Assembly (NCBI GenBank): GCA_963718575.1
Contig: OY970358.1
Location: forward strand, 322,172-386,171
DNA from: an uncultured bacterium
GTDB lineage: Bacteria > Patescibacteriota > Minisyncoccia > UBA6257 > 2-01-FULL-56-20
Length of the DNA: 64,000 bases
Reading direction: 5' to 3'
The translations under genes and the position numbers were made by a program. The notes under the pieces were generated by a model. It did no database searches, was not told where the DNA came from, and worked only from the letters and a program-made list of their open reading frames with translations. Numbering within the stretch: the first letter of the stretch is position 1; every line of letters starts with the position of its first letter. Below are positions 44,737 to 63,724 of this stretch, in pieces.

Positions 44737-46317
44737 TCAATTGTGCTGAAGGCTCGGGTGGCGAAATGGCAACCGCAGCGGACTCAAAATCCGCCGATCG
44801 CAAGGTCTTGAGGGTTCGACTCCCTCCCCGAGCACCATACAAGAGACAAGGTTAGTTTCAGAAAAATTCAGCCGCGCTTCGCGGAGCGAAGCGTAAGGTG
44901 GAGTGGGGGTAAATTCAATACGACGATTTTTAAGAACTGCGTTCGAGCCGGAAATTTTTTGGGCAAGGGATTTTTTGAGGGTAAGATCGGTCGAAACGGC
45001 AGTTTCGCCAATGTTTGCCGCATCATCTATCCAACCGCGTAGCTGTTCGAGCCACGCTAGATACCCTCGGTTCAGTCCGGCCATTTTCTCCTCCAGCGAC
45101 CTTTTGTGCAGGAGAAGCTTCGCTTTCTCCAAGCGGTAGGCATTCCGCTCAATATCTTGCTCAAGATAGGCATCGAAAAGTCGCTGGAGTTTTTCGGTAA
45201 CGGATGCTATCTCGCTACGGAGGGCTTGGTTCTCGCGTATGGGAGATCGGGCGGCGTCCTGCTCGTCCTTGTCTGCAAGTTTATAGAGTTCGGCCGCCCA
45301 ATCGGATGGCAAGGCAAATTCTTTGAAGATGCTGGAAAGTTGATCAGATAAAACTTCTTCTCTGATATAGGGCTGGGAACACACAACGCCTTTTTTACTG
45401 CAACGATAGTAGGTGCGGCCTTTCTGAAATTCTGCAGTGATCATCCGTCCGCACTCGCCGCACCGAAACAGCCCGCAAAGCGGCTTTGGTTGTTTGGTTT
45501 TTATCTGCGGTTTGCTCCGCTCTTTAAGGACAGCTTGGACTTTATCGAACAGTTGTTTGGAAATTATCGGTTTATGTTTGCCCTCGTATAGTTCTCCGGC
45601 GTAGCGGAACAGGCCGCAGTAAAAAGGGTTGGAGAGAAACCACGTTATCTGATCGCGCTTCCACGCTCTCCCGCCCTCGCTCATCCATCGGTTGCTCGCC
45701 TTGGTTTTAACGCCCTTATCGAAAAGAAATTTAGAAATGTCCTCGAGGCGGGACTGGTTCTTGGAATACAACTCAAACGCCTCGCGGACGATGGCCGCTT
45801 CCTTCTCATCAACAACTATCTGTTTCCTTCGCACATCATTGATATAGCCCAATGGCGCAACGCTCGGATACTCGCCGCGCTTCGCTTTCTCGTGGAGGCC
45901 TCGTTTCGTGTTCGCGGAAAGATCGCGGATATACTGGTTCGCCATCCCAAACTCGACGCCGATCATAAGGACGTTATCGGAAGGATAGTAACTCCGGTCG
46001 CTCGTGAGGATGCGCTTTATGACATCCTGCTGAAGCAACCACTGGACACGGGCGGCATCCATCGGATTACGGGCGAGACGATCCAGTTTCCAGCACAAGA
46101 CACCCTGTGCCTCTCCTTGCTCAATCCGTTGCATCATCCCGTTAAAGACAGAACGGCCGGGCATCTTAGCCGATTGCTTTTCAATGAACTCTCCGATGAT
46201 ATGGAGCTTCTCTTGCCTAGCCAAAGCACGCAAAACGGAAAGCTGGTCTTCGATAGAGCGTACTTGTTTGTCTTCGACATCGGTTGATTTGCGGGCGTAG
46301 AGGAAATAGTTAGGCAT
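44737..46317 (-). CDS. Large serine recombinase (resolvase catalytic domain, recombinase domain and zinc ribbon). Its 3' end reads antisense through tRNA-Leu.
   Basis: YARKSTDVEDKQVRSIEDQ...WKLDRLARN. C-terminal CxxC...C ribbon. About 526 aa. Confidence 0.85.
   Translation of the reverse strand: MPNYFLYARKSTDVEDKQVRSIEDQLSVLRALARQEKLHIIGEFIEKQSAKMPGRSVFNGMMQRIEQGEAQGVLCWKLDRLARNPMDAARVQWLLQQDVIKRILTSDRSYYPSDNVLMIGVEFGMANQYIRDLSANTKRGLHEKAKRGEYPSVAPLGYINDVRRKQIVVDEKEAAIVREAFELYSKNQSRLEDISKFLFDKGVKTKASNRWMSEGGRAWKRDQITWFLSNPFYCGLFRYAGELYEGKHKPIISKQLFDKVQAVLKERSKPQIKTKQPKPLCGLFRCGECGRMITAEFQKGRTYYRCSKKGVVCSQPYIREEVLSDQLSSIFKEFALPSDWAAELYKLADKDEQDAARSPIRENQALRSEIASVTEKLQRLFDAYLEQDIERNAYRLEKAKLLLHKRSLEEKMAGLNRGYLAWLEQLRGWIDDAANIGETAVSTDLTLKKSLAQKISGSNAVLKNRRIEFTPTPPYASLREARLNFSETNLVSCMVLGEGVEPSRPCDRRILSPLRLPFRHPSLQHN
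44752..44837 (+). tRNA. tRNA-Leu (anticodon CAA), CCA encoded
   Basis: GCTCGGGTGGCGAAATGGCAACCGCAGCGGACTCAAAATCCGCCGATCGCAAGGTCTTGAGGGTTCGACTCCCTCCCCGAGCACCA, type II with a long variable arm. Confidence 0.9.
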
Positions 46318-46367
46318 AGTATTACATTATATTGTAATACTACCATATAATATAACAAGCGATATAC

Positions 46368-46583
46368 TTGTGGGTAATGAGAAGTGAAGCCTCAAAACTC
46401 GGCGAGAATTTAAAACGTATTAGAACAGCCAAGGGCATAACGCAAGGAGATATAGTCCGCAGGCTAAAAGTGGGGCGAGGATTTATCAGTAATATTGAGA
46501 ACGGAAAAGCCAACCCTACACTGTCGACGATTGCAAAAATAGCAAAAGCAATTGGAGTATCGGTCGGAGAATTGATGAAATAA
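46368..46583 (+). CDS. XRE-family HTH transcriptional regulator
   Basis: LKRIRTAKGITQGDIVRRLKVGRGFISNIENGKANPTLSTIAKIAKAIGVSVGEL. Confidence 0.85.
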   Translation: MWVMRSEASKLGENLKRIRTAKGITQGDIVRRLKVGRGFISNIENGKANPTLSTIAKIAKAIGVSVGELMK

Positions 46584-46591
46584 GTTCTAAA

Positions 46592-46999
46592 ATGACTAAG
46601 AATGGATTTATAAGAATCTGCAATGATAAAGAATTTTGGCGACAGATAAAACAGTCCTCCTATCCAGAGTTCGAGGATTATATTGCCAAACTATTTTTTA
46701 AATTAGGCTACAGATCAGAAGTGGTTGGCGGAGAAAATGACGGCGGCATCGATGTAGTTTTGTCGAAGGATGGCGTCCGATACTATGTTCAATGCAAAAG
46801 GTATAGGGGTGCCAGCGTATCTGCCGCCGAGGTGCGCGAATTTTATGGTGCATTGACGCACTATGGCACTAAGAGTGCGGGCTTCTTTGTTACAACCACC
46901 AAATTTAGCCAACAGGCAGAATCATTTGCCGAGGGGAAGCCAATTATATTGATCGACGGGCAGAAGTTGGTGGAATACGTTAGACGTGTCGAAAAGTGA
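46592..46999 (+). CDS. Stand-alone Mrr-cat-type restriction-endonuclease-fold protein (PD-(D/E)xK)
   Basis: FEDYIAKLFFKLGYRSEVVGGENDGGIDVVLSKDGVRYYVQCKRY... Confidence 0.7.
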   Translation: MTKNGFIRICNDKEFWRQIKQSSYPEFEDYIAKLFFKLGYRSEVVGGENDGGIDVVLSKDGVRYYVQCKRYRGASVSAAEVREFYGALTHYGTKSAGFFVTTTKFSQQAESFAEGKPIILIDGQKLVEYVRRVEK

Positions 47000-47331
47000 G
47001 CCACTACCACCTCTTAGCGCGCCCCAAAGGAGGGGTTGGGGGAGGAATTTGGGCGCGCCATACGCGAAGCCCCGAAGCCAGCAGGCTGAGGGGCTGAGCA
47101 CACCATCTCGGAGGGGGTCTAGCGGAGTGAAGTAGGACTTGTGATTTTCGGAGACGACCCTCAAAAAGATCAACAATATCAGGTCAATCCGGACTTGCCA
47201 CCCCTTCATTCCGAGCATACCCGAGTGAAGGGGTGAATGAAGGGGTAAACAGGTAGCCAATGTAGGGGTAAAATGGTTAGGTCTGACCCTCGAAGAACCC
47301 TCGAGCGGAGGTATATAACGCCACCACACTT

Positions 47332-51835: not shown

Positions 51836-51922
51836 GGAGACGTGGCCGAGTGGCTGAAGGCAGCATCCTGCTAAGATGTTAGGGGAGAAATCCCCTCGAA
51901 GGTTCGAATCCTTCCGTCTCCG
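51836..51922 (+). tRNA. tRNA-Ser (anticodon GCT)
   Basis: GGAGACGTGGCCGAGTGGCTGAAGGCAGCATCCTGCTAAGATGTTAGGGGAGAAATCCCCTCGAAGGTTCGAATCCTTCCGTCTCCG. Long variable arm. Confidence 0.85.
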
Positions 51923-52038
51923 CAGACAAGGCGATTGTATCGTAGCGATCGTCTTATATAGGTTTTTAGTGCGACCGACATATATGAGGGCACCAGGACG
52001 CCCGAACTTTTTGGTGTTAAAATGAAACTGCTACGCAT

Positions 52039-53073
52039 ATGAAATTAGATGATGTATACGCTGCAGCAGACAAATTGAGGCGATCTGCTGCAGCCATGCA
52101 AAAAGAAGCGAAAGCAGTAAAAACTGCTTGCTTGGATATCAACACATCGTGGAGCCAGTCGGCTCTCACTCGGCACGCAAAATTCTATTTCCGCAACTAT
52201 GAAGAGCCTCCCGCAACTAGTCGGTTCAATATTGAGTGGGGCCTAATTCATGGAATTCCCGACGGCTGGGAAGAAAGATCCAATGAAGAAGTTTGCCAAG
52301 AAATTGAAAAAAGGAGCGGAGCATCTCTCGATGATTTTAAAGAAAAAGTTACGAAGCTCGAAGACGAATTCGAGGCTTTAAAGCGAGACACTTCTCTTGT
52401 GCTGATAGAGGAAGGAATCGCGGACGTTTCGGAGATTGAGGGTTTTAAGTTTGAGAACGCAACGGATTATTTTAATACGTTAAATCCGACTACTTATATG
52501 ACGCGTGACAGTGCGGCCATCACCTCTGGAAGGTATATCGCACCCCACATTTATTTCGAGGCCGTCGCGATGTCAGCTCTAGGGATCGAAGGGCAGCTTG
52601 ATGAATTCATATATAAGATTAAAAAGCTCGGCGTAGGGACTGGCACTCCTCAAAAGAGCAACGATTTCTGGAATACGATCCACCCAGCGATAAGATCAGT
52701 TTCGGAAAAACAATTTAAGAATGGACATTATCTCGATGCCGTTCGTTCTGCGTTCATCGAATTCAATGATAAAGTAAAGCAAAAATACAAAAAAGACGCG
52801 GGTACAGAGGAAGATGGATTCAATTTAATGAAATTAGCTTTCGGCGACTTTTCAGCATCTAATTCAAGCTTCAACGGAACCGTGAAATACAGCCTGGCAG
52901 ATCTATCAACGGATTCAGGAAAGAATTTCCAAAAAGGTTTTTCGCTCATGTCGGCTGGAGCAGTTCTCGGCTTAAGAAATCCACGAGCCCATGCGAACGT
53001 TATGGACGAGAAGGACGAAGCTATTCACTTAATTTTTTTGGCAAGCTGGCTTATGAGAACTGCGTTTCCATAA
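52039..53073 (+). CDS. Two-domain protein: a novel N-terminal region plus a C-terminal HEPN-like domain (Rx4H: LRNPRAH), resembling the TIGR02391 'Abi C-terminal' family
   Basis: C-terminus ...FWNTIHP...NGHYLDAVRSAFIEFNDKV...FSLMSAGAVLGLRNPRAHANVMDEKDEAIHLIFLASWLMR. AT-rich. Confidence 0.55.
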   Translation: MKLDDVYAAADKLRRSAAAMQKEAKAVKTACLDINTSWSQSALTRHAKFYFRNYEEPPATSRFNIEWGLIHGIPDGWEERSNEEVCQEIEKRSGASLDDFKEKVTKLEDEFEALKRDTSLVLIEEGIADVSEIEGFKFENATDYFNTLNPTTYMTRDSAAITSGRYIAPHIYFEAVAMSALGIEGQLDEFIYKIKKLGVGTGTPQKSNDFWNTIHPAIRSVSEKQFKNGHYLDAVRSAFIEFNDKVKQKYKKDAGTEEDGFNLMKLAFGDFSASNSSFNGTVKYSLADLSTDSGKNFQKGFSLMSAGAVLGLRNPRAHANVMDEKDEAIHLIFLASWLMRTAFP

Positions 53074-53179
53074 TTGATATCTGATAACCCTCAGGATTGG
53101 TTTTTTGATGCTCTCTGGCGTAAGATGAAGTTATTAAAAAATCATTAAAAAACAGGGGTATTCTAGCCTCCGTTCAACC

Positions 53180-54250
53180 ATGGCTGTCTCTATTAAAAAT
53201 ATCAATAAGTACGTGCAGGCCATAGCCCAAAGCGGACTCACTATTTATGATCCCATCGAAATCGGCGATCCGAATCTTTGGATTCCATCTCAAGAACTCG
53301 AAGTCCTACTGAATCAAAAACTCAAGGGTATATCTCTCGACGGACTGCCTCTCCGGACGCGATCCAAAGTCGTTAAACAAAAAGTTTGCGAATCTCTTGG
53401 CTATCCCACGCCGGAAACTTTCGAGAAAACACAGCCGCGCTTTCCGGGCCAATGTTTCGACACCTATATTCAAAAATCAAACAATCTACAGATATGGAAT
53501 GAGGAATTATCACCCACAAGAAGGTACGTCCTTATTAAGGTAAGCGAAAAAGATTTGATTGAAAAAGTTCGAGTGGTAAGCGGAGACACGCTTGCCGTCC
53601 TTGATACCACGGGAACCCTCACCCAGAAGTATCAGGCGAGACTTATTGTCGGCCAAAAGATTTCCGAATTGATATCATCGTCAGATACGAGCCGCGTTAA
53701 AGAAATCACCAATGGCTTCGATGAGAAAAAGGTAAACTTGGCCGATCCTACTGATCATGCCGATGGCGAAAATCTTTTACCGATTAAACTTATTCATGAA
53801 CGACTCTCGAAAATTATTGGGAAGACTTTCTCGGATTCAGGCCATGACCAAGAAAGAAATCGCGGAGGTTTCTTACATAAGTTAGTCTGCGAATCCCTTG
53901 GCTATAAAACCTACCATGATAATGGACAGTTTCCTGATGTACCAAATCAGCTTTTAGAGATCAAATTGCAGACCTCGCCAACGATTGATTTAGGACTCGT
54001 GAACCCTGACAGCAAAACTGCTTTGGATACGCCAAAGATCAATGGAAAACAGATACGGCATTGCGATGTTAGGTATGCACTTTTTTATGCCAAAATCGCC
54101 AACAAGCATGTAACGATAACAAATTTTTTCCTCGTCACCGGAGAAGAATTCTTTTCCCGATTCCCGAGATTTGAGGGAAAGATTATTAACAAAAAGATTC
54201 AGATACCCTTACCCGCCGATTTCTTCGAGTTCAATCCGAAAGCCATATAG
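53180..54250 (+). CDS. Candidate restriction endonuclease of the MutH/Sau3AI-like PD-(D/E)xK type with an internal domain duplication
   Basis: D-x6-E-x-K motif (PDVPNQLLEIKLQ) in the C-terminal half. Repeated VCESLGY(P/K)T modules at about aa 70 and about aa 245. Convergent with, and overlapping, the methyltransferase gene. Confidence 0.5.
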   Translation: MAVSIKNINKYVQAIAQSGLTIYDPIEIGDPNLWIPSQELEVLLNQKLKGISLDGLPLRTRSKVVKQKVCESLGYPTPETFEKTQPRFPGQCFDTYIQKSNNLQIWNEELSPTRRYVLIKVSEKDLIEKVRVVSGDTLAVLDTTGTLTQKYQARLIVGQKISELISSSDTSRVKEITNGFDEKKVNLADPTDHADGENLLPIKLIHERLSKIIGKTFSDSGHDQERNRGGFLHKLVCESLGYKTYHDNGQFPDVPNQLLEIKLQTSPTIDLGLVNPDSKTALDTPKINGKQIRHCDVRYALFYAKIANKHVTITNFFLVTGEEFFSRFPRFEGKIINKKIQIPLPADFFEFNPKAI

Positions 54251-55917
54251 ACCCGCGAATTTAATTTCGCCTCAAGATCGTTTGTTTTTGCGCTGGGCGA
54301 GATTTTATACATTTGCCTTGCAATAACAACAATCTCTTTTGAGATTTTTAGATCGGGATTCGGCAACGGAAAATTCTCAACATATTGAGTAATGAAACGA
54401 CGCCGGCCTGAATATAGCTTGTTATTAAAGCTATGATCATAAAATTCTTCGATGAAGCTTGAGTTGGCGACTGCCAAGGCTAGCCAAAGTAAATCAGATT
54501 CTTTTTTATCGCTCAACGAAAGCCAGTAGCAATCGCCATTCACGACGCTCCCGCTTAGGTCCATCCAGAACACTGGCTTTTCCGAGATGTCCCGAAAAAC
54601 GAGCTTGGGCTGCTTCCAGGCATCAGGGTTATGAGGAACCCATATCTCAAACCAGTTGCGATTCGACTCTGCAATATAAGTCCTACTTGCGAGCTGTTTT
54701 TTATGGGACTCGAGATATTTTTTAACGATGGGAAATTTCGCAAGATCAATTGCCTTCCTTACCCCATCTTTTACCTCGTGTGGATAAATCACATACTTGA
54801 TCGGCTCATTGGCCTTAAAACGCCTAGCTACATGATGTGTAATTAATGGCTGCAGGATTTCGGGCAACCGTCCCGAAAATTTTTCCATATCTGCATCGGA
54901 GAGAATAAAAACGTTGTCGGCAGTTGTTTTTATGCCAACCCTTATCTTTCCGATATCCTTAAATGTCAGCTTCGTTTTTGATCTCACTTGCTCGAGCCAA
55001 TCGTCAGCTTGCTGAGTCGCCAATCTCCAGACATCGCCATGTTTCTTTCCATGATCCAAGGTTCCGTGGAGCACCTTAAATAAATCGCCATCGCTTTTCG
55101 CCAGAGCATTGAAGACTAAAGTAGGATTGGGATTTTTAGTTCCTTCCTGAAGATAAATTGAGGTAAATTTTGGCTGGTGAACCTCATCTGGCATGCCTTT
55201 TGCTTTCTCAAGTAATAAAACTGCCGGAAGTACGGCTGCTTCAAACAAGCGGGTGTCACCGAAATCCCAAACATGTAAAATATTAAAACTGGACAATAAA
55301 TTTTTCCTCACCGTAACCCCCGATTTCGTTGTCAAAAATCGGTTCGACACTATGATGCCTAAAATCCCATTTGATTTTAAAATCTTTTCGATGCCCTTAA
55401 GGAACGCATGATAAAGATCTACCCTCCCGGAAAGGTTGAATTGTTTTGCTAATCGCTTTGCCTTTTCAGATCCCATTACCTGGGTTCTTACGTAGGGAGG
55501 GTTTGCAATAACAATATCGAATCGCGAAGCTTCAGTCGCTGGCGAGAATAGTGATTCATTATAGAAGTCTAGAACCCACTCCAGAAAATCTCGCTTCTCG
55601 ATCCTCAGAGAAGTCGAAGGAAAATTCTCACTAATTAACTTTTGTGAGGCATTTACAGCATCCTGACTGATATCACAGCCGAATACCTCTAGATTGTTAA
55701 GGTTTCTATCATGCGCGAGCTTAATCAAACTAAGCAAAAGCTCTCCGTCGCCTACCGCAGGATCAATTATTCTAATCTTGTGCTTTTTATCCAAGATCCT
55801 TGTTTCCAACTGATCCAAAATTTGAGCTGCGACAAAGTCCGCTAAGGAAGTCGGCGTGTAATGAGCCCCCGTATCCTTTCTTAACTGCATATCAAATTGT
55901 GTATCCAAATTTGGCAT
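54199..55917 (-). CDS. N6-adenine DNA methyltransferase (gamma-class, Eco57I/TaqI-like) with a C-terminal target-recognition region
   Basis: TGAHYTP (motif X). IIDPAVGDGELL (motif I). IVIANPPY (motif IV). 572 aa. Confidence 0.85.
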   Translation of the reverse strand: MPNLDTQFDMQLRKDTGAHYTPTSLADFVAAQILDQLETRILDKKHKIRIIDPAVGDGELLLSLIKLAHDRNLNNLEVFGCDISQDAVNASQKLISENFPSTSLRIEKRDFLEWVLDFYNESLFSPATEASRFDIVIANPPYVRTQVMGSEKAKRLAKQFNLSGRVDLYHAFLKGIEKILKSNGILGIIVSNRFLTTKSGVTVRKNLLSSFNILHVWDFGDTRLFEAAVLPAVLLLEKAKGMPDEVHQPKFTSIYLQEGTKNPNPTLVFNALAKSDGDLFKVLHGTLDHGKKHGDVWRLATQQADDWLEQVRSKTKLTFKDIGKIRVGIKTTADNVFILSDADMEKFSGRLPEILQPLITHHVARRFKANEPIKYVIYPHEVKDGVRKAIDLAKFPIVKKYLESHKKQLASRTYIAESNRNWFEIWVPHNPDAWKQPKLVFRDISEKPVFWMDLSGSVVNGDCYWLSLSDKKESDLLWLALAVANSSFIEEFYDHSFNNKLYSGRRRFITQYVENFPLPNPDLKISKEIVVIARQMYKISPSAKTNDLEAKLNSRVYMAFGLNSKKSAGKGI

Positions 55918-55920
55918 TGT

Positions 55921-57285
55921 TTATTCAATCTTACTCTGATTTTTCTGGGTCTCCAAGTTGTCTTTAATGATTTTTTTATCTTTGAATAAAAGCCTGCTTT
56001 TTATGGCCCCCAGCAGCTCTCGTTTCTCAACTATACTTCCTTCACGCAATAAATATTTAGCGTAAATTCGGAGATCGACATCTTGGACTGCTGCCTTGAT
56101 TCCCTGCATTCCGAGAATCCCTTTTTGAAATTTATTGAATCGTTGGACTTCTTCCTCGAATTTGTGCCGCATTCCTATTTCGCTAATATCAAGCTTGTCC
56201 ATGATTTTCACAAGCTGCTCGATTATATCTTCTTCACGCATGTATCCCGCCTTACAGTTCTTATCCCGTGCCCGACTACAGCCATAATAAACGTACCGAG
56301 CCGTCGTGCCATCTTTATGCCTCTTATACTTTTCCTCCGCACTCACACCCGATCCACAAAGGCCACACGTCATCAGCTTTGTGAATGCGAACTCCTTAAT
56401 CTCCGAACGCACGATCTGATCACGCTTCAGCTGCGCCTGTACTTTATCGAACAGTTCCTTGGTAATTAGCGGCTGATGCTTACCGTCATACCACATGCCA
56501 CTCTTTTCTGGATATTCGAATCGTCCGTAATAAAAGTGGTTCTGGAGCGTGATATAAATATTCCCCAGCGAAAGATGGTGATTACTCTTGGTTCGGAAAT
56601 TTAGGTCGAACCGCAGCCAGTGATAAACTTTCCGGCCAGACCAATGTTCATTTGCCACCTTCTCAAAAATTTTCTTTATGATATGTCCGCGTTCGGGGTC
56701 AACGAGCACTTGGCATTTCCGATCCATCCTCTTCTCGTTAAGATATCCAGTGGGCGCAACGCCCGGCCGCAACCCCATTTCACATCGCGTCCGTAATCCG
56801 CGTCGCACGTTTACGCCGCGATTATCGTTTTCTAATTTCGCCTGCGAACCAAGAATCATAAGCAGGAACTTTTCGTTCGGCGAATTACTGAATCGCTGGC
56901 CGTACGTCCGGATATCGACGAGGAGTTGCTCATCCATAAGATCGACGAGCTTCCCCAAATCTCCGGCGTTCCTGCTCAACCTGTCTGCCGCCCACGTCAT
57001 AATGCCGTTGAACTTTCCGGCGCGGATATCGTTAATAATCTCATTGAACACCGGACGCTGGCCTGTCGCTTTAGCCGAATGGCTCTCGCGACGAATCTCG
57101 ACGACTTCCAACTCTTCGCGTTCGGCGAGCTGAAGCATCTCTTTCACCTGCGAATCGATCGATAGAATCTGGCGCTCCTCCGATTCGGTGCTCTTCCTTG
57201 CATACAAGAGGTATTTGACCTTTACTTGGGTCGGGATTTTTGTGGGGGCTCCCGTCCCGCTTGCCCCCATTGTTTGGGTAGTCAT
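55921..57285 (-). CDS. Large serine recombinase (second copy). Its stop lies 3 nt upstream of the methyltransferase start, in the same orientation.
   Basis: YARKSTESEERQILSIDSQ...WAADRLSRN. Recombinase domain. C-terminal Cys ribbon (CGLCGSG...C). Confidence 0.85.
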   Translation of the reverse strand: MTTQTMGASGTGAPTKIPTQVKVKYLLYARKSTESEERQILSIDSQVKEMLQLAEREELEVVEIRRESHSAKATGQRPVFNEIINDIRAGKFNGIMTWAADRLSRNAGDLGKLVDLMDEQLLVDIRTYGQRFSNSPNEKFLLMILGSQAKLENDNRGVNVRRGLRTRCEMGLRPGVAPTGYLNEKRMDRKCQVLVDPERGHIIKKIFEKVANEHWSGRKVYHWLRFDLNFRTKSNHHLSLGNIYITLQNHFYYGRFEYPEKSGMWYDGKHQPLITKELFDKVQAQLKRDQIVRSEIKEFAFTKLMTCGLCGSGVSAEEKYKRHKDGTTARYVYYGCSRARDKNCKAGYMREEDIIEQLVKIMDKLDISEIGMRHKFEEEVQRFNKFQKGILGMQGIKAAVQDVDLRIYAKYLLREGSIVEKRELLGAIKSRLLFKDKKIIKDNLETQKNQSKIE

Positions 57286-57356
57286 ACCTCAATGGATGAC
57301 GCAATGGCGGCAGGAGTCCAGAGCGACCGAAAAGCCCTTAAGGGCTCCTTATCTCC

Positions 57357-57857
57357 TTACGGCAACGAAGCAATGGGTGACGATGTAATCCTTTCGAAAG
57401 CCTTGGAAAATATTTCTCGCTGCCTGTCTATTTCCGGCTGATTTATCTCTGCGATTTTTTCTCCTTCCTTATATTTTCCAAACTCTCTTTCATAATCTCT
57501 CGTTGCGCGACCATCAAGGTGAACAATCGAATTACGAATTAAAAAAATTTCTCGAATCGCGGGGTCATAACACTTTCTTAGCACCTTTTCGGAGCGGTCT
57601 TGAAAGCAAATTTTATGGCGCGCCGGATCAGCTGTTTTAAGATCGCGTACGAATTTCTCCCAAGCCATGCAAAACATTATCGGTATGGACTGGCGAAGGT
57701 ATGCCGCGTACAGCGGAGTGGATCTTGGCCGCGAAGCAGACATGGAATCGCCTTGAGCCAGGTCAGCACTATTAACAATGTCAGCCGATAACGTCGAATC
57801 GACTTTCTCATAATACTCGCGGATACTATCGAGCTCTTCCGAAAACGAGTACGCCAT
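57357..57857 (-). CDS. Hypothetical protein (166 aa) with a HEPN-like Rx4H motif (RNSIVH)
   Basis: ...IREIFLIRNSIVHLDGRATRDYE... Start overlaps the stop of the upstream gene (operon). Confidence 0.4.
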   Translation of the reverse strand: MAYSFSEELDSIREYYEKVDSTLSADIVNSADLAQGDSMSASRPRSTPLYAAYLRQSIPIMFCMAWEKFVRDLKTADPARHKICFQDRSEKVLRKCYDPAIREIFLIRNSIVHLDGRATRDYEREFGKYKEGEKIAEINQPEIDRQREIFSKAFERITSSPIASLP

Positions 57858-59173
57858 TAGAGATTCGGGGGCAAATTGGAGTTCGGGTACCCCCTCTTAA
57901 TCCTCTCGTAGATAGCGGCCGCAGGTGCTTCGAGTTCTTTCCTCCGATCTTCCGGAGCGAGCTTATACGAAGCAAAGATTCTTGGCCAGTCTCCCACATA
58001 AGCTCCGAGGTAAGTTATTTTTTCGACATGAGTTAGTATGTCGATGAGGCTATCTGGGGCAACCTCAGCAATTTTCTCGACGATCTCCTGAATTCCGTTG
58101 AGCCATACGCGCCTCTCTTTTTCAAGATGCGACATCCCACCTTCTAAATATTCCAGCATCTGCCTTGTGAACTGCACGCCGTCTCCCGGCGCTATCCGTA
58201 GAACGGCTTCGACTAAAAATTCAAATTGGCCGACAGGCTCGTATTGGAATTTTCCTTCAAAAAATAAGGGGATATATTTTTTGAACAGTTCATAATTTTC
58301 TCCATTTTCTTCGAGCTGCTTCCATGTTATCCAAATGAGGGTAGTCTTGAGTCGAGGTGCCTGCGGAACATCCGAACTTGAATCTTTGATAAGCTTTTTC
58401 AAAAAATCTCTGAACCATTCTCCGTGAAAAGCAGCATCGAATTTCGGCCTATATTCCGCAAAGAAAAGAGCGTACGGCGTGGCGTGCTCCGTGAGATAGT
58501 CAGGACGAAGGACCCCGCTTGCGTCATAAAAAATCGTGCTCAATAGTTCCTGAGCCTGCGCTTCGGTGAGAGTGATTCTCGGCTTATCGAATACGCCCAC
58601 CACGCTTTCTAAAACGCGGGGATATTTAGTATTATCCCGGAGCATCTTCCACGCGAGAGCCACGGCCCGGGATTTATCGGCATCGGTAAATCCAAATGGC
58701 GTGCCATCTTTGTTCTGCTTGGCATACATATTGATGGTCAAGCCAGAAAGAGCTGCGGGCACTTGCTGGCGAACGTATAGCGATTCATCGCTAGCAAGCT
58801 CTTCGAGGACACTTAATACCCGTTGGTAATATTCTGTTTTAAACGTAGCTACGATTTTTTGAAGCAACCAGGGCACGCTTCCCCGTATGGTGTAGATATT
58901 ATTGATGTCTTCTCCTTTTTCAATTTTTTCGTTGAGATTGTCAAAACCCGGCACAGGATCTGGATCGCGTGCGTAAAGTTCGGCAACCCTTAACGCCTTT
59001 TCCACGAACTGTCCCTCTTGAACCAAATCGGCAAGAATCCAAATTATGTCGAACTTGCTATATTCCTTTTCCAAAAGATTCTCCCAATCGGGATCCTCTA
59101 GCTCCCTTAGAATTCTCTTTTTTAAAATATCTCGGTAGGTCATTACCCTGATGTTACTCCAGAGAGCATGCAA
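57857..59173 (-). CDS. Hypothetical all-helical protein (438 aa), first gene of a two-gene operon
   Basis: No recognisable catalytic motif. Helical repeat-like composition. Confidence 0.45.
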   Translation of the reverse strand: MHALWSNIRVMTYRDILKKRILRELEDPDWENLLEKEYSKFDIIWILADLVQEGQFVEKALRVAELYARDPDPVPGFDNLNEKIEKGEDINNIYTIRGSVPWLLQKIVATFKTEYYQRVLSVLEELASDESLYVRQQVPAALSGLTINMYAKQNKDGTPFGFTDADKSRAVALAWKMLRDNTKYPRVLESVVGVFDKPRITLTEAQAQELLSTIFYDASGVLRPDYLTEHATPYALFFAEYRPKFDAAFHGEWFRDFLKKLIKDSSSDVPQAPRLKTTLIWITWKQLEENGENYELFKKYIPLFFEGKFQYEPVGQFEFLVEAVLRIAPGDGVQFTRQMLEYLEGGMSHLEKERRVWLNGIQEIVEKIAEVAPDSLIDILTHVEKITYLGAYVGDWPRIFASYKLAPEDRRKELEAPAAAIYERIKRGYPNSNLPPNL

Positions 59174-59252: not shown

Positions 59253-59921
59253 CTATTCGAATGCCGGATTCACATAGTCGAGATCCCACACGCCCGGCAG
59301 GATCTGCAGTTCGAGCGTCGCTTTATCGAGGCTCCAGTTGATCTGCGATGCGTCGTCTGTCGTAAGCGTCGCCCGGTACACCATGCCGTCGCTCGTGTTC
59401 CCGTACTTGTCGGTGAGGGGAAGATATCCCGTTACCGTCGCGGTTTCTATCTTCTGGCCGCTCGTATAGACGGCGATGAAAACATCGGCGGTTTCCGATT
59501 CAAGGCCGTCCTTCGTCAGACCGTTCGACAGATTATTGTCGCCGTTGAATTCTACAGTAACGTCCCATCCGCCTTTTACTGCGGGATCCGGTTCGACATC
59601 AACGCTCCTCAGCTTCGGCTCGTTGCTTTGGTTCGTCTGCCCCTGTAGGACGTTCCCCACGATCGCCTTGATCTGCGAAGCGGGATCCTGCGGAACGTTA
59701 TTCGCAACAGTCGTCGGCGCGGTGGTCTGAGGCGCCGTTGTTTGATTGGGCGTTATCCCTATTCCGATTGCAAAGAGGATGAATCCACCGAGTCCGAACG
59801 TCAGCGCGATTTTCGTCCGCGTATTCTCCTTAAAGAGCTTCTTGAGCGGCTCCGGTCTGATCAACGCACCGATCGTGAAGAGCATCGAGATAATTCCCAC
59901 TGTTCCTAATAATGCTCCCAT
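59253..59921 (-). CDS. Membrane-anchored hypothetical protein (222 aa)
   Basis: Two N-terminal TM helices. Extracytoplasmic Thr/Asn-rich region. Confidence 0.45.
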   Translation of the reverse strand: MGALLGTVGIISMLFTIGALIRPEPLKKLFKENTRTKIALTFGLGGFILFAIGIGITPNQTTAPQTTAPTTVANNVPQDPASQIKAIVGNVLQGQTNQSNEPKLRSVDVEPDPAVKGGWDVTVEFNGDNNLSNGLTKDGLESETADVFIAVYTSGQKIETATVTGYLPLTDKYGNTSDGMVYRATLTTDDASQINWSLDKATLELQILPGVWDLDYVNPAFE

Positions 59922-60005
59922 GTTATTTCTCTTTATGGTTGTATTCGACCTTTCAACACAATGAATGACGCGAATACTCGATCAAGTCCAGAGCTTCCAA
60001 ATTTC

Positions 60006-60887
60006 TCACAAACCTTGGCGATACAGCTCGTCCAAGGTCTTGCCATCAGCCGTTTTCCACGTCATCCATCCGTTCGTGGAATAACCGAGAATAAGGTCGC
60101 CCGCCGCACTCGGCGTCGTAAAACTGTAATCACGGGCGAAGGCATATCCATCGCCGCTTTTTTCGACGATACCTTCTGCTAAAAGTTTCGCGATAAGCTT
60201 TTCATTCCGTTCGGCAACCGCAGGTGATTGCTTTCCGCTGATCGTCGATCCTTGGTAGACGATAAATCCCTCATTCGTCATCCGGGCGGTACCTTTCGCG
60301 GTGACGTCTTTGTTCTGAACCATAAACAGCGGATTCTCGTGATCGGCAACCGCTTTCGCTTCGAGCTTCTGGAGTATCGGGTAGCCGACCGTGCCGAGAA
60401 GTAATCCGATATTTTTTACGAATTCCTCCATCACGGGAATATCGGCCTGCGGGAGGTGCGGAATGAGCGATCCCGTGCTGTTCTTAAGCACATAACCGAA
60501 ATGCTTCGCCTCGTTTGCAATCTCGACGCAGCGCGATTCGAGATATTTCACATGCGCCTTCGTCAGGCTCTCGTCGCTTGAGACGAACGCGATGGTGGTA
60601 TACCAAAAATCCTTGCCTTTGTCGTTGTTGTGCGTCGTCAATCTGTCAAAAAGATTTTCCGCTTCGCCGATATAGGCGGATGCGACGAGGTTTTCTTCGA
60701 ATTCGCGGCCAAACAAAAAATACACCGCTGGCTGTCGCGCGACGTCATCGCTACCCATCTCCTTCAATTTGTTGCGGGGGAAAATGAGGCCTTGCCCGGT
60801 CCAGCCCGCGAGCGAGATTATTTTCCTTCCGTCCGGTTCGCCGTCGACCAGAAATAGTGTAATTTTCTTTCCTGAATTTTGAGCCAT
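60006..60887 (-). CDS. GIY-YIG nuclease-domain protein with a C-terminal DUF4357-like region
   Basis: PAVYFLFG...AYIGEAENLFDRLTTH (GIY-YIG). C-terminal GYSTNGWMTWKTADGKTLDELYR. Confidence 0.65.
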   Translation of the reverse strand: MAQNSGKKITLFLVDGEPDGRKIISLAGWTGQGLIFPRNKLKEMGSDDVARQPAVYFLFGREFEENLVASAYIGEAENLFDRLTTHNNDKGKDFWYTTIAFVSSDESLTKAHVKYLESRCVEIANEAKHFGYVLKNSTGSLIPHLPQADIPVMEEFVKNIGLLLGTVGYPILQKLEAKAVADHENPLFMVQNKDVTAKGTARMTNEGFIVYQGSTISGKQSPAVAERNEKLIAKLLAEGIVEKSGDGYAFARDYSFTTPSAAGDLILGYSTNGWMTWKTADGKTLDELYRQGL

Positions 60888-61145
60888 GGCGATTGAGCAA
60901 TTTCATCGCCGACCCGAAGTTCTTAGAAACTCTGAACCCCGTGCCAGCTAGGTCTTGCGACCCCATACCAGTTTCCCGATATGGCCCGATAAAGAGTTGC
61001 TGAACGCGGGGTTCAGAATTCTTTATCGGGGCTTTGGTCCATATCTCCGCTGGAAGCGGAGGGTTAGGCTGGGATTAACCCTATGAAATTGTTGAATTTA
61101 TCATAATCCGTCGGGCAGAATTACACAAACACACACTGAATATCT

Positions 61146-63323
61146 TCATGACCACTTTACGCCATAATAACGATCCTCAATTAATCCCTCATCAATGAAG
61201 CTACGAACTAGGAGTGTAAAACTGTCCGCTTCATCGTCATGAGATTCCACTCCCAGCCCGATCATCTGCGCAATAAGCGTTTCCGCTCCATGCTTGGGGA
61301 ATAGGATGACCCCTGCGTTCATGAGATCGGCGCACGACGCAAGGCGGGAGCGTTTGTCGGTCGTGACCGTCACGCCCTCGACTTTGTAAATGCGGTCGAA
61401 TTTCAGCTGGTCGACGGCCGCTTGCTGGAATTGGACTGTCTCGACGCGGATCTTCGCATCTCGCCATGCGTTACGGAGCGAATAATAACGTTCCTTTATC
61501 TTCGCTATGATTTCGGGGAACGTGAGCCGCTCATTTACGATACTCGGCAATACGTAGGCTTTAAAGTTTTTGCCCGTTCCCTGCGTCACGATGCTCACCA
61601 TGGCGGTGTAGTCGTTCGTCTCCTTCTGTCCGATCGCGAGATCGACGCCGAGGTATGCGGTGATATGCCCTTGATCCGGAGAAGGCAATTTGTCGTAATA
61701 CCGGATCATGTCCCGCGTGACCACCTGATCTTCTTCGGGAACGATCTTCAGCATGAATTCCCGCAGGAATGCGTTCTTGTTTCCTATCTCCCGCTTTTGC
61801 GCTTCAATTGCCGCTTCGGTCGGATATTTATTCGGCCACGCGACCGTGCCGTTCTTGTCTATAAACGGATAGGCCTTGAATACGCCATCAATCGCGCCGC
61901 TGCTTACCTCGCGCTTCAAGCGCATCAAAAGCGAGTCTTCATGGAGCAGGTTGCCCACGATGACGAGGCGCGTTTTCCCGAATTCTCCCGCGCCGATCAC
62001 ATCGAGCTTCAGCCAGCGGTACACTTTGTCGCGGCCTTCCTTCGTTTTCACGGAAGCGGTTGATTCGACATCGTCGCAGATGATGAGATCCGGACGATAT
62101 TTGCCGTGATGGATGCCCCTAATCTTCGATTCAACCGACATCACGAGAATCCGCGCGTTGAAATTCTTGAACACAATGGTATACGCGCCCCATTCCGGGC
62201 TATCATCTTCAAACGGACCCAAGTCATTTTTAAGGAGTTCATCGTCCTCAAGCTTCTGCTTGATGGCATCCATCTGCAGCTTCGCCTGCGGAAGGGTATC
62301 GCAAATGATAACGACGAATTTCTTTTGCGGTTTTCCCATAATCGACCATAACGGAAGCGCCGTCGTGAAGATGGTCGACTTGCCCGATCCGCGGAATGAG
62401 ACGATAAAAAGCTTATGCAGCTCTTCCTGCCCGATCAGGCGAAACATCTCGCGGTGAAATGCCGCCGTGTCGTATTCCACGGCATCCGCAAAATAGAGAT
62501 GGAAGAAAGCGTAGGGACTCTCGCTGCACACGGCCGCGCGGACGCTCCGATCGGTCATAATCTGTTCGAAAAGCTCCGGCGGCATCGCCTCCGTTGCGTA
62601 GGCATCGGGATCGGGAAGCTCCATCTCTTCGTTCTCCGGCAACGCGGCATCATCGCCAACCTCCGCAGCCGCATCTCCTTCGGGAACAACGGGCGACCAG
62701 CCATATGGCTCAATGGAGCCGTTCGAGACATAGGGTTCGGCTATCGCGGGGTCGAGGTCGAAGATATCTTCCTCCGTAAACGATCCGACGATTACCGTAA
62801 GTTCTCCCGTGTTTACCACGCATCTCTTGAACCCTTCGAGATGGACGCGCGGTTCGCCCGGCGGCGGCACGTATGCCTTGATCTTGCCATCGAAAAAAAG
62901 CCTTCCGATATCGCTGCTAGGACCAATATCGACGATATCTCCCCACGTAACGGTTTTCTCGATATCCACATCGCGCGTTGCCTTATATCGCCTGGTTCCT
63001 TCCAGAGGGTCATACGCGGGCGGATACGGCTCTAAGAATTTTCTGTCGACGTATGTCTTGGCGACAGTCGGATCGAGTGTGACGATCTGCCCTTTCTCAA
63101 AATATGGTGATGGCCGAGGAATTCTGTTAAGGATGATCCACCTTCTTTCGCCGCGCGGTTCGCCCGGAGGAGGCACGTACTCCTTTATAACGCCGCGGGC
63201 GAGATACGGCTGGGCTTCCATTACGCCGAGCGAGATAATCTCTCCCTCCTGGTAGTACTCCTGGATGCACATCGGGATCAGTACTTTATATGTTTGCGAT
63301 TCTGCCATGGGCGTGGTTATCAT
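61146..63323 (-). CDS. Phage terminase large subunit-like protein (ATPase plus RNase-H-like nuclease) with an N-terminal duplicated module of about 250 aa
   Basis: Walker A FRGSGKST. Walker B DLIICDDVE. Nuclease segment YLGVDLAIGQKETNDYTAMV. Repeats ...YVPPPGEPR... appear twice. The start is set at the ATGA overlap with the small-subunit gene. Confidence 0.7.
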   Translation of the reverse strand: MITTPMAESQTYKVLIPMCIQEYYQEGEIISLGVMEAQPYLARGVIKEYVPPPGEPRGERRWIILNRIPRPSPYFEKGQIVTLDPTVAKTYVDRKFLEPYPPAYDPLEGTRRYKATRDVDIEKTVTWGDIVDIGPSSDIGRLFFDGKIKAYVPPPGEPRVHLEGFKRCVVNTGELTVIVGSFTEEDIFDLDPAIAEPYVSNGSIEPYGWSPVVPEGDAAAEVGDDAALPENEEMELPDPDAYATEAMPPELFEQIMTDRSVRAAVCSESPYAFFHLYFADAVEYDTAAFHREMFRLIGQEELHKLFIVSFRGSGKSTIFTTALPLWSIMGKPQKKFVVIICDTLPQAKLQMDAIKQKLEDDELLKNDLGPFEDDSPEWGAYTIVFKNFNARILVMSVESKIRGIHHGKYRPDLIICDDVESTASVKTKEGRDKVYRWLKLDVIGAGEFGKTRLVIVGNLLHEDSLLMRLKREVSSGAIDGVFKAYPFIDKNGTVAWPNKYPTEAAIEAQKREIGNKNAFLREFMLKIVPEEDQVVTRDMIRYYDKLPSPDQGHITAYLGVDLAIGQKETNDYTAMVSIVTQGTGKNFKAYVLPSIVNERLTFPEIIAKIKERYYSLRNAWRDAKIRVETVQFQQAAVDQLKFDRIYKVEGVTVTTDKRSRLASCADLMNAGVILFPKHGAETLIAQMIGLGVESHDDEADSFTLLVRSFIDEGLIEDRYYGVKWS

Positions 63324-63724
63324 TCGGTCGGCGTGGGCGTTCCGTCCTTTGGAAGCAATGCTGCATGCTGGAGCGCCTTGCGGACGATCTCTTGCTGCTC
63401 GGGCGTGAGAGACTCTTTTTTCTCGATGCGTGCGGTGATGTCGAGCGTGTTTTTGAATTTCGGATGCCGGCGCGACAGCCAAAACGCTATGGATTGCCAG
63501 TGTTTGTCTTTTATGAGCGAGATGAGTTGCGCTTCTCCTAAATCATTTAGGATTGCTTCGCCCTCGCCGAGCGCCTCATCCACCGCTTTATCGAATGCCG
63601 GATCGGCCTTCCGCCAGTTATGAATGCTCACACGCGAGATATCCAATTTTTCGCAAGCGACTTGGATGATAGGGGCTTTGCGAAGCTGCTCAATAAACAA
63701 TTTTTGGATGCGCTGTTTTTTCAT
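63320..63724 (-). CDS. Terminase small subunit-like HTH protein
   Basis: IQVACEKLDISRVSIHNWRKADPAFDKAVDEA. Directly upstream of, and overlapping, the large-subunit start. Confidence 0.5.
   Translation of the reverse strand: MKKQRIQKLFIEQLRKAPIIQVACEKLDISRVSIHNWRKADPAFDKAVDEALGEGEAILNDLGEAQLISLIKDKHWQSIAFWLSRRHPKFKNTLDITARIEKKESLTPEQQEIVRKALQHAALLPKDGTPTPTE

Follow-up and report, generated by a model that had tools for sequence, protein, structure and literature searches.

The Ymh family (PF09509) has been placed in the HEPN superfamily and is described as having a conserved Rx4-6H motif and as lying "in operon with R-M", that is, with restriction-modification genes (Anantharaman et al., 2013; PMC3710099). 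The N-terminal partners listed for this family are the paraMORC ATPase, AbiJ-NTD1, AbiJ-NTD2 and AbiTii, and the AbiJ-type proteins, in which N-terminal modules (AbiJ-NTD1–5, AbiTii) recur before varied toxin domains, have the closest overall architecture to the protein described here (PMC3710099). Even AbiJ is without a known mechanism, according to a 2026 review. We analysed a 64,000-nucleotide stretch of DNA from an uncultured Patescibacteriota bacterium (contig OY970358.1, positions 322,172 to 386,171; hereafter the window), in which a gene at positions 52039–53073 (+ strand) encodes a C-terminal Ymh/TIGR02391 HEPN domain behind an N-terminal domain of uncatalogued type. The gene shares its R-M linkage with the Ymh family as reported (PMC3710099), and its N-terminal partner is recognised by none of the models searched. 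The obtained results showed that this N-terminal domain is common to proteins with interchangeable known defence effector domains, and that the gene is the first of a four-gene integrative element.

The open reading frame (ORF) was present exactly as the initial annotation had given it, with an ATG start, 344 residues, the stop codon included in its coordinates, and the C-terminal sequence quoted there. That annotation had proposed a HEPN-like C-terminus with an Rx4H motif, had likened it to the TIGR02391 family, and had named a hidden Markov model search as a way to check it. When the search was run, PF09509 (Hypoth_Ymh) matched residues 213–340 (positions 52675–53058, + strand) with 75.0 bits and an E-value of 5.7e-21 over profile positions 2–117 of 119 in Pfam, where the gathering score is 25. 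TIGR02391 matched residues 214–339 with 49.7 bits (E 3.6e-13; profile positions 1–117 of 125) in NCBIfam, above the curated cut-off of 39.45 bits, so the family had been named correctly. The label attached to it was imprecise, as TIGR02391 is named "hypoth_ymh" and "Abi-like C-terminal" denotes a different HEPN family, Abi_C/AbiJ. In PADLOC, the HEPN domain gave weak matches to Aga_HEPN (1.7e-7) and PD-Lambda-3_B (1.6e-4).

The predicted catalytic Rx4H motif, R313-N314-P315-R316-A317-H318 (RNPRAH), is encoded at positions 52975–52992 (+ strand), right before the last helix. Its conservation among homologues, on which the initial annotation had staked its proposal, was examined in the 33 relatives having both a Ymh C-terminus and the N-terminal domain. 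R313, N314 and H318 were invariant in all 28 that cover the site, the other five being gapped or truncated at the RNx3H site. Distant Ymh-type relatives (~25–35% identity) read FRNEKSHT at the position where the window protein reads LRNPRAHA. The bare pattern is uninformative alone, since a regular expression finds R-x4-6-H in 70 of 112 unrelated C-terminal tails. With both the family thresholds exceeded and the motif kept, including a polar residue after R and a place ahead of the last core helix, the C-terminal domain is, on sequence grounds, a member of the Ymh/TIGR02391 HEPN family. In the AlphaFold2 model, the predicted helices 216–227, 231–254, 292–309 and 321–342 may correspond to a four-helix HEPN core, with two HEPN loops at low confidence, and the RNPRAH motif sits between the last two of these helices, where the local predicted local distance difference test (pLDDT) score is low.

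The gene is real and constrained. An orthologue at locus L001 (variant P0001) shares 84.5% identity in DNA and 94% in protein, and the ratio of nonsynonymous to synonymous substitution rates against it is 0.044 for the whole gene, 0.06 for the N-terminal domain and 0.02 for the HEPN domain, which demonstrates strong purifying selection on the gene and on both of its domains. The HEPN half is ordinary, being a known, never-characterised HEPN family in its expected R-M surroundings.

The N-terminal domain occupies residues 1–200 (positions 52039–52638, + strand) and was delimited as an alpha+beta domain by profile search, alignments and an AlphaFold2 model. The initial annotation had seen no motif that it could place in these ~200 residues, and the databases bore this out: Pfam at E ≤ 10 returned noise only, NCBIfam, PADLOC and PHROGs (each at E ≤ 0.01) returned no match, and PDB sequences (E ≤ 10; phmmer and profile hmmsearch with several family alignments) returned none either. 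Relatives were found in sequence space. An initial homology search yielded 13, all of which share the N-terminal ~200 residues, with W38, S39, S41, H46-A47-K48, E66-W67-G68-L69-I70, G72, P74, G76-W77, R156-D157, G164, Y166, H170 and Y172 invariant. These 13 fall into two groups with unrelated C-termini, group A with the Ymh HEPN domain and group B with a different domain of ~145 residues. A profile of the N-terminal domain only, searched with HMMER against 1.84 billion cluster representatives, matched 664 proteins at E ≤ 1e-3, of which 239 reached E ≤ 1e-10. Most members of the closest subfamily come from CPR/Patescibacteria (CPR, candidate phyla radiation), and others from Dadabacteria, Zixibacteria, Gammaproteobacteria, Nanopelagicaceae and Streptomyces. 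The host of the window gene appears to be CPR-like too, and a small genome is suggested by the 881,652 bp of the longest contig with proteins of the window. A profile scan of genome contigs with a narrower family alignment recovered eight loci, all of group B, and no relatives of the family were found in GenBank phages or IMG/VR.

Information content in the family is highest at residues 31–90 and 151–172 and low in the variable long helical arms. The two stretches form a conserved core that reads SWSxS..H..Y..P..F..EWG..G.P.GW and TRD..A..G..P.H, in which S37, W38, S39, S41, H46, E66, W67, G68, W77, R156, D157 and G164 are near-invariant across sequences that are ~25% identical. When the whole protein was modelled with AlphaFold2 from a 113-sequence alignment, the mean pLDDT was 83 and that of the N-terminal domain 93–98, with a weak linker near residue 205 and low confidence in the HEPN loops 258–289 and 309–317. 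A model of the N-terminal domain alone, built from 43 diverse sequences, reached a pLDDT of 92.9 and a predicted template modelling score of 0.89. The modelled domain begins with a helical hairpin (residues 3–35), followed by a loop- and strand-rich segment (36–80) that bears most of the invariant residues, helices 82–93, 97–124 and 141–148, a conserved segment around T155-R156-D157…G164…H170, and a long final helix (169–199). Foldseek searches of PDB with the full-length and N-terminal-only models, and of BFVD, returned nothing significant; the top match of the N-terminal domain had an E-value of 0.35 and a template modelling score of ~0.15, and all matches were generic helical bundles. The N-terminal domain is a sizeable, well-conserved and confidently folded family without a model in any database searched.

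The proteins that carry this domain were then surveyed for what follows it, the survey covering the best 150 of the 664 profile matches. The domain is N-terminal in 156 of 162 family proteins (the 13 first relatives and 149 others), and at least 30 unrelated tail clusters follow it in 112 full-length proteins. Among 113 members scanned with Pfam, the tails comprised a CAP12/Pycsar-type TIR domain in 17, a DpnII/MboI-type restriction endonuclease (REase) fold in 16, Hypoth_Ymh in 14, another type of TIR domain in four, a PNP_UDP_1 phosphorylase/nucleosidase in three and DUF4145, another HEPN family, in one. PADLOC and NCBIfam identified the tails as ThsB-type TIR (9e-60), PDC-S35 (5e-68), PDC-M60C (7e-68) and Aga_Helical-REase (2e-35), together with CBASS TIR and PN-superfamily effectors, PycTIR and Cap12. 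In scans of individual proteins each of these effector matches started at approximately residue 200, and therefore no such model covers the shared N-terminal domain. The PADLOC candidate systems PDC-S35 and PDC-M60C, as well as Aga_HEPN and Aga_Helical-REase, resemble the family in their C-terminal TIR, PNP, REase or HEPN portions, and differ from it in N-terminal parts (for instance "Helical", profile positions 1–228) that do not align to the domain. Aga proteins are Argonaute-associated, and no Argonaute gene lies near the window gene.

The C-terminal domain of group B was considered as a divergent Ymh HEPN domain, and this was rejected at the sequence level, with hhalign probabilities of 0.3% and 0.9% and nothing in Pfam. 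Its ~145 residues (P0006–P0013; loci L018–L025) nonetheless keep an invariant R-x4-H, within R-x-I-L-D-H-x-P-P, as well as a D-x-x-L-H. No match to it was obtained in Pfam, PDB or PADLOC. It has at least 624 homologues, mostly "hypothetical" proteins of 220–260 residues from CPR bacteria, Omnitrophota and Bathyarchaeia, and it may be another uncharacterised effector domain.

A comparable range of partners is known from AbiJ-type proteins, and here also a single module precedes HEPN (Ymh, DUF4145), REase, TIR-like and nucleoside-processing domains. AbiJ-NTD1, whose prototype is residues 1–140 of Bcep1808_2091, has been reported fused to Ymh, DUF4145, REase and nucleoside deoxyribosyltransferase domains, and further to AbiJ-family HEPN (Abi_C), HKD phosphoesterase and S/T/Y kinase domains (PMC3710099). 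Its partner set overlaps in part with that of the window domain, through the Ymh, DUF4145 and REase tails counted above, and no Abi_C, HKD or kinase fusions occurred in the same 113 members. AbiJ-NTD1 is described as ~140 residues long and mostly helical, and the possibly distinct domain of the window protein is ~200 residues long with a conserved loop/strand core. Pfam, NCBIfam, PADLOC and PHROGs hold no model of AbiJ-NTD1, and no further paper in the searched literature mentions it. Pfam includes models for AbiJ_NTD3/4/5 and AbiTii, and the window domain matched no Pfam model.

One N-terminal module before interchangeable TIR, REase, PNP and HEPN domains is how a sensor or switch is joined to its effector, both in abortive-infection proteins made of a single polypeptide and in immune effectors that are activated by a signal. 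The initial annotation had regarded a sensor domain joined to a HEPN domain as typical of abortive infection, and the fusions to TIR, REase and PNP domains, together with the mobile R-M cassette described below, lend support to that suggestion by analogy. We tentatively propose, as a reading that could well prove wrong, that the domain is an undescribed sensor or switch whose fold is without a solved relative, and that it defines a single-gene anti-phage family in which one sensor serves many effectors. The pocket formed by SWSGS, EWG..GW and TRD would read a conserved infection cue without a signal-generating partner, and the effectors under its control would be TIR NADases, REase-fold DNases, PNP nucleosidases, Ymh HEPN ribonucleases (RNases) and one or more other large effector-like domains of uncharacterised type.

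The same fusions bear on a different possibility, in which the pocket binds a second messenger or an infection-induced metabolite that host or phage produces elsewhere, and thereby activates the attached effector. SAVED, CARF, STING, SLOG and cNMP domains sense signals in CBASS, type III CRISPR, Thoeris and Pycsar. The fused effectors (Cap12/Pycsar TIR, ThsB-type TIR, PNP, REase and HEPN) are the set found in signal-activated systems, and the polar/aromatic core of the N-terminal domain is nearly invariant while its helical arms vary. Set against this, a cyclase, a TIR signal generator or another conserved partner was not found in ~17 genomic contexts, the 5.4-kb element that carries the gene is self-contained, and the fold of the domain matches no known nucleotide sensor. 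We regard such a receptor as unlikely. CBASS, Pycsar and Thoeris do resemble the family in having one sensing module with many effectors, and the effectors of the family are homologous to the Cap12/PycTIR TIR, the ThsB TIR and the CBASS PN superfamily. A strict CBASS, Pycsar or Thoeris effector was rejected because the protein has no known sensor domain, with no SAVED, CARF, STING, SLOG or cNMP match, and no partner, with no cyclase in the ~17 contexts.

The interchange of effectors is likewise informative about whether the HEPN domain is active. A catalytically silent domain would bind RNA or a ligand in a regulatory or housekeeping role, like the MtlR-type HEPN proteins. Some HEPN families are non-catalytic (PMC3710099), and some relatives of the gene lie among housekeeping genes. 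The R-N-x3-H signature is strictly kept, however, the family has a patchy distribution across phyla, on mobile elements and plasmids, and the HEPN domain swaps with bona fide toxin domains behind the same N-terminal domain; a silent role is, on this evidence, highly improbable.

The gene lies in an integrative element of 5,441 bp with four genes and low G+C content, at positions 51901–57341, bounds that were set by its identity to L030 over exactly these coordinates. The first gene downstream encodes a type II restriction endonuclease of 356 residues (53180–54250, + strand; PADLOC REase_II PDLC03565, E 1.2e-147; no Pfam match). It is followed by an Eco57I/TaqI-type N6-adenine DNA methyltransferase of 572 residues (54199–55917, − strand; PF07669, PF02384 and PF12950; PADLOC MTase_II PDLC03226, E 5.4e-198), the gene of which is convergent with the REase gene and overlaps its 3′ end. 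The last gene encodes a large serine recombinase of 454 residues (55921–57285, − strand), presumed to be the integrase, with Resolvase, Recombinase and Zn_ribbon_recom domains and matches to the phrog_95 integrase (3.9e-60) and to CcrB-like proteins (3.7e-38). The G+C content is ~42–44% across the element and ~54% outside it. Promoter and terminator scans gave results at chance level.

The gene neighbourhoods of relatives showed that linkage to R-M genes is recurrent. A group B protein from Paceibacterota (P0013; L008/L009) is encoded inside a type I R-M operon with the order hsdR-Fic-hsdM-DUF3800-gene-hsdS, and at L022 and L023, from two different Patescibacteria genomes, the gene has an EcoRI-type methyltransferase (E ~1e-130) on one side and a GmrSD_N+HNH nuclease on the other. 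The gene of P0009 (L007), just downstream of tRNA-Glu (tRNA, transfer RNA), adjoins a serine recombinase, an SNF2 helicase and two DNA methyltransferases. Other relatives are found directly downstream of tRNA-Glu or tRNA-Ser, or at most ~1.6 kb away. Two proteins with the N-terminal domain and a TIR domain, WP_115672692.1 of Ciceribacter and WP_233138034.1 of Agrobacterium vaccinii, are encoded on plasmids of Rhizobiaceae. The accessory regions around them contain recombinases, VapC/Phd genes, insertion sequence elements, a large N6-methylase and a GIY-YIG nuclease. No neighbouring gene is conserved across the ~17 contexts. A DUF3800 gene adjoins the gene for the N-terminal domain in two unrelated contexts only, the Paceibacterota type I R-M operon (L008 7201–7998; L009) and a Ciceribacter plasmid (L026 5567–6697), and this adjacency could be a coincidence or an occasional partnership.

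Such linkage is what would be expected if the protein guarded its R-M neighbours in the manner of PrrC. The N-terminal domain would then bind the REase, the methyltransferase or their complex with DNA and keep the HEPN domain inactive, and phage anti-restriction proteins would release the RNase. R-M genes stand directly beside the gene in the window and beside its relatives at L001, L008/L009, L022, L023 and L007, with both Ymh-type and group B C-termini, so that the linkage follows the N-terminal domain, and there is no terminator-like site between the gene and the REase gene. There is also the precedent of PrrC/EcoprrI and the proposal made for Ymh-paraMORC proteins (PMC3710099). Nevertheless, the linked R-M systems are unrelated (type II, type I, and an EcoRI methyltransferase with GmrSD), and a single conserved pocket is unlikely to recognise them all; many relatives have no R-M neighbour, and R-M and Abi genes co-localise in islands without interacting. 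We therefore see little likelihood of a guarding role.

With PrrC and RloC the window protein shares the layout of a (here predicted) N-terminal regulatory domain joined to a (here predicted) C-terminal HEPN RNase, and PrrC is encoded in a type I R-M operon, as is the relative P0013. The second-line-of-defence logic that has been proposed for R-M-linked HEPN proteins is also common to them (PMC3710099). The HEPN family is not the same. Assignment as a PrrC/RloC-type anticodon nuclease was rejected because the protein has no ABC ATPase, the N-terminal domain giving no ATPase or P-loop match (Pfam, E ≤ 10) and no fold match.

The bounds and the mobility of the element were apparent from independent insertions. 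Between the window and L030, identity is 100% from 51901 to 57341 precisely, with unrelated sequence on both sides, and an identical protein is present on eight contigs. In the window the cassette follows tRNA-Ser(gct) (51836–51923, + strand; ARAGORN; Rfam, 56.9 bits), the 3′ part of which, from 51901, is supplied by the element according to the junction alignment. L013 and L030 carry it at tRNA-Ser(tga), and the L001 variant is inserted at tRNA-Ser(gga), with 84.5% identity to the window over 51836–57341 and the right end shared. The element is thus present at three different tRNA-Ser isoacceptors. On the left the element starts within the tRNA, at the T-loop, and brings with it 24 nt that copy the tRNA-Ser 3′ end. 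The tRNA-Ser(tga) of L013/L030 (~1799–1885 in L013 coordinates) is chimeric, with mismatches in the T stem (GTGGG/CCTTC) and the acceptor stem (GGAGGGG/CGTCTCC), because its 3′ half comes from the element, which would have replaced the native copy. As the unit shared across these insertions is bounded at 51901–57341, the gene is the cargo proximal to the attachment (att) site of the 5.4-kb element.

The right end of the element was less conventional. No direct repeat of the tRNA 3′ end marking attR was found in the window, and no displaced native tRNA 3′ remnant was found at the right junction in the three insertion contexts (window 57342 onwards; L030 15304 onwards; L001 ~5517 onwards). The missing remnant is unexpected under conservative site-specific recombination. 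A prophage origin, which the terminase genes near L013 and at 61–63.7 kb in the window had suggested, was rejected because the shared unit is only 51901–57341 and because relatives are absent from GenBank phages and IMG/VR.

The position of the gene within so small an element admits a role in addiction, in which a HEPN toxin with the N-terminal domain as its cis-acting inhibitor penalises loss of the element, alongside the post-segregational killing to be expected from the R-M genes. The gene is att-proximal cargo of a minimal element that otherwise holds just R-M genes and a recombinase, a tRNA gene is often found directly upstream of family members, or no more than ~1.6 kb away, at the edges of inserted DNA, and HEPN toxins are common in toxin-antitoxin systems (PMC3710099). 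Yet the spacers showed neither an ORF nor an RNA that could be a separate antitoxin, with the tRNA as the only Rfam match, and the killing by differential stability that typifies classical toxin-antitoxin pairs is impossible with a single polypeptide. Moreover, the same N-terminal domain is fused to TIR and PNP effectors, which are typical of defence and not of plasmid addiction, and several copies lie in apparently non-mobile housekeeping contexts. Stabilisation of this kind in place of phage defence is, in our judgement, quite improbable. A HEPN-MNT type II toxin-antitoxin system was rejected as well; the neighbours are the tRNA and REase genes, with no conserved small partner ORF and no RNA family in the spacers.

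Taken together, we favour, and consider moderately probable, a stand-alone two-domain effector of the abortive-infection type, in which a latent HEPN RNase is held under the control of the N-terminal domain, is set free by infection and serves as a backstop to the R-M system on the same element. We infer the RNase activity, its latency, the sensing role of the N-terminal domain and the anti-phage function from the domain composition, the conserved motif and the mobile setting. The C-terminal Ymh HEPN domain would be a latent, metal-independent RNase with R313 and H318 forming its active site, which dimerisation probably completes, as it does in other HEPN enzymes. The N-terminal 200 residues would act as the sensor or switch that holds the RNase off until a cue linked to infection is received. 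The activated RNase would then cleave cellular RNA, phage RNA or both, and growth of the infected cell would stop. The element would in this way bring two layers of defence, with DNA restriction first and an RNA-targeting backstop second, and the same cargo may also favour retention of the element.

Several observations weigh against this effector. The RNPRAH loop is poorly modelled, with a pLDDT below 50 at residues 309–317, and the full-length model brought up no HEPN structures in Foldseek. The near-invariant polar and aromatic core would suit a pocket for ligand binding or catalysis better than a fast-evolving sensor of phage proteins. Several relatives are located among housekeeping genes and have no defence neighbours, and the association with defence islands was judged from ~17 contexts by inspection. 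The searched literature describes no experiments on Ymh/TIGR02391 proteins or on any member of the N-terminal domain family.

The value of the locus lies in the N-terminal half of the protein, a domain that occurs in hundreds of protein clusters, that has no model in the main family and defence databases, and that precedes most classic immune effector domains. Domains with such fusions have repeatedly been recognised as the parts that sense the trigger in bacterial immune proteins. Knowledge of its ligand would add a type of sensor, and could also give a functional annotation to several hundred proteins now labelled "hypothetical" or "TIR domain-containing", some of them encoded on plasmids of culturable Rhizobiaceae. 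The 5.4-kb cassette is a compact, natural and self-mobile unit with two predicted layers of defence, and is small enough for whole synthesis and testing.

Further candidate defence and mobile genes were observed around the insertion sites. Just beyond the right end of the element, a 166-residue ORF (57357–57857, − strand) contains IFLIRNSIVHLDG, with an RNx3H motif; its similarity to HEPN_RiboL-PSP is weak (E 0.0028), and the score of 18 bits falls short of the 28.4 required. A 438-residue ORF without a family match (57857–59173, − strand) lies directly against it, and the two may be a second HEPN-based, two-gene system beside the cassette. A phage-like block at 59253–63724 (− strand), with phrog_8263, phrog_12629/DUF4357 and terminase genes, adjoins the element and lies outside it; the terminase large subunit is encoded at 61146–63482 (778 residues; phrog_38, 2.5e-71) and a small-terminase-like ORF at 63320–63724.

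To the left, the window at ~44750–47000 contains tRNA-Leu(caa) (44752–44837), followed by a large serine recombinase (503–526 residues), a 68-residue HTH_3 protein and a 135-residue Mrr_cat nuclease, a gene content taken from gene calls on the near-identical contigs L028/L029 (99.7–99.95%). The G+C content falls to 0.447 at 46–47 kb, and the region looks like a second mini integrative island of similar style. At the other insertion sites, a further serine-recombinase island with PG_binding_1, Terminase_2 and zf-UBP genes lies directly upstream of the tRNA-Ser(tga) of L013/L030. The tRNA-Ser site of L001 is likewise flanked by other candidate defence genes, with a 168-residue ORF, a 989-residue ORF and an AbiGi-domain gene at L001 5563–9253, to the right of the cassette variant.

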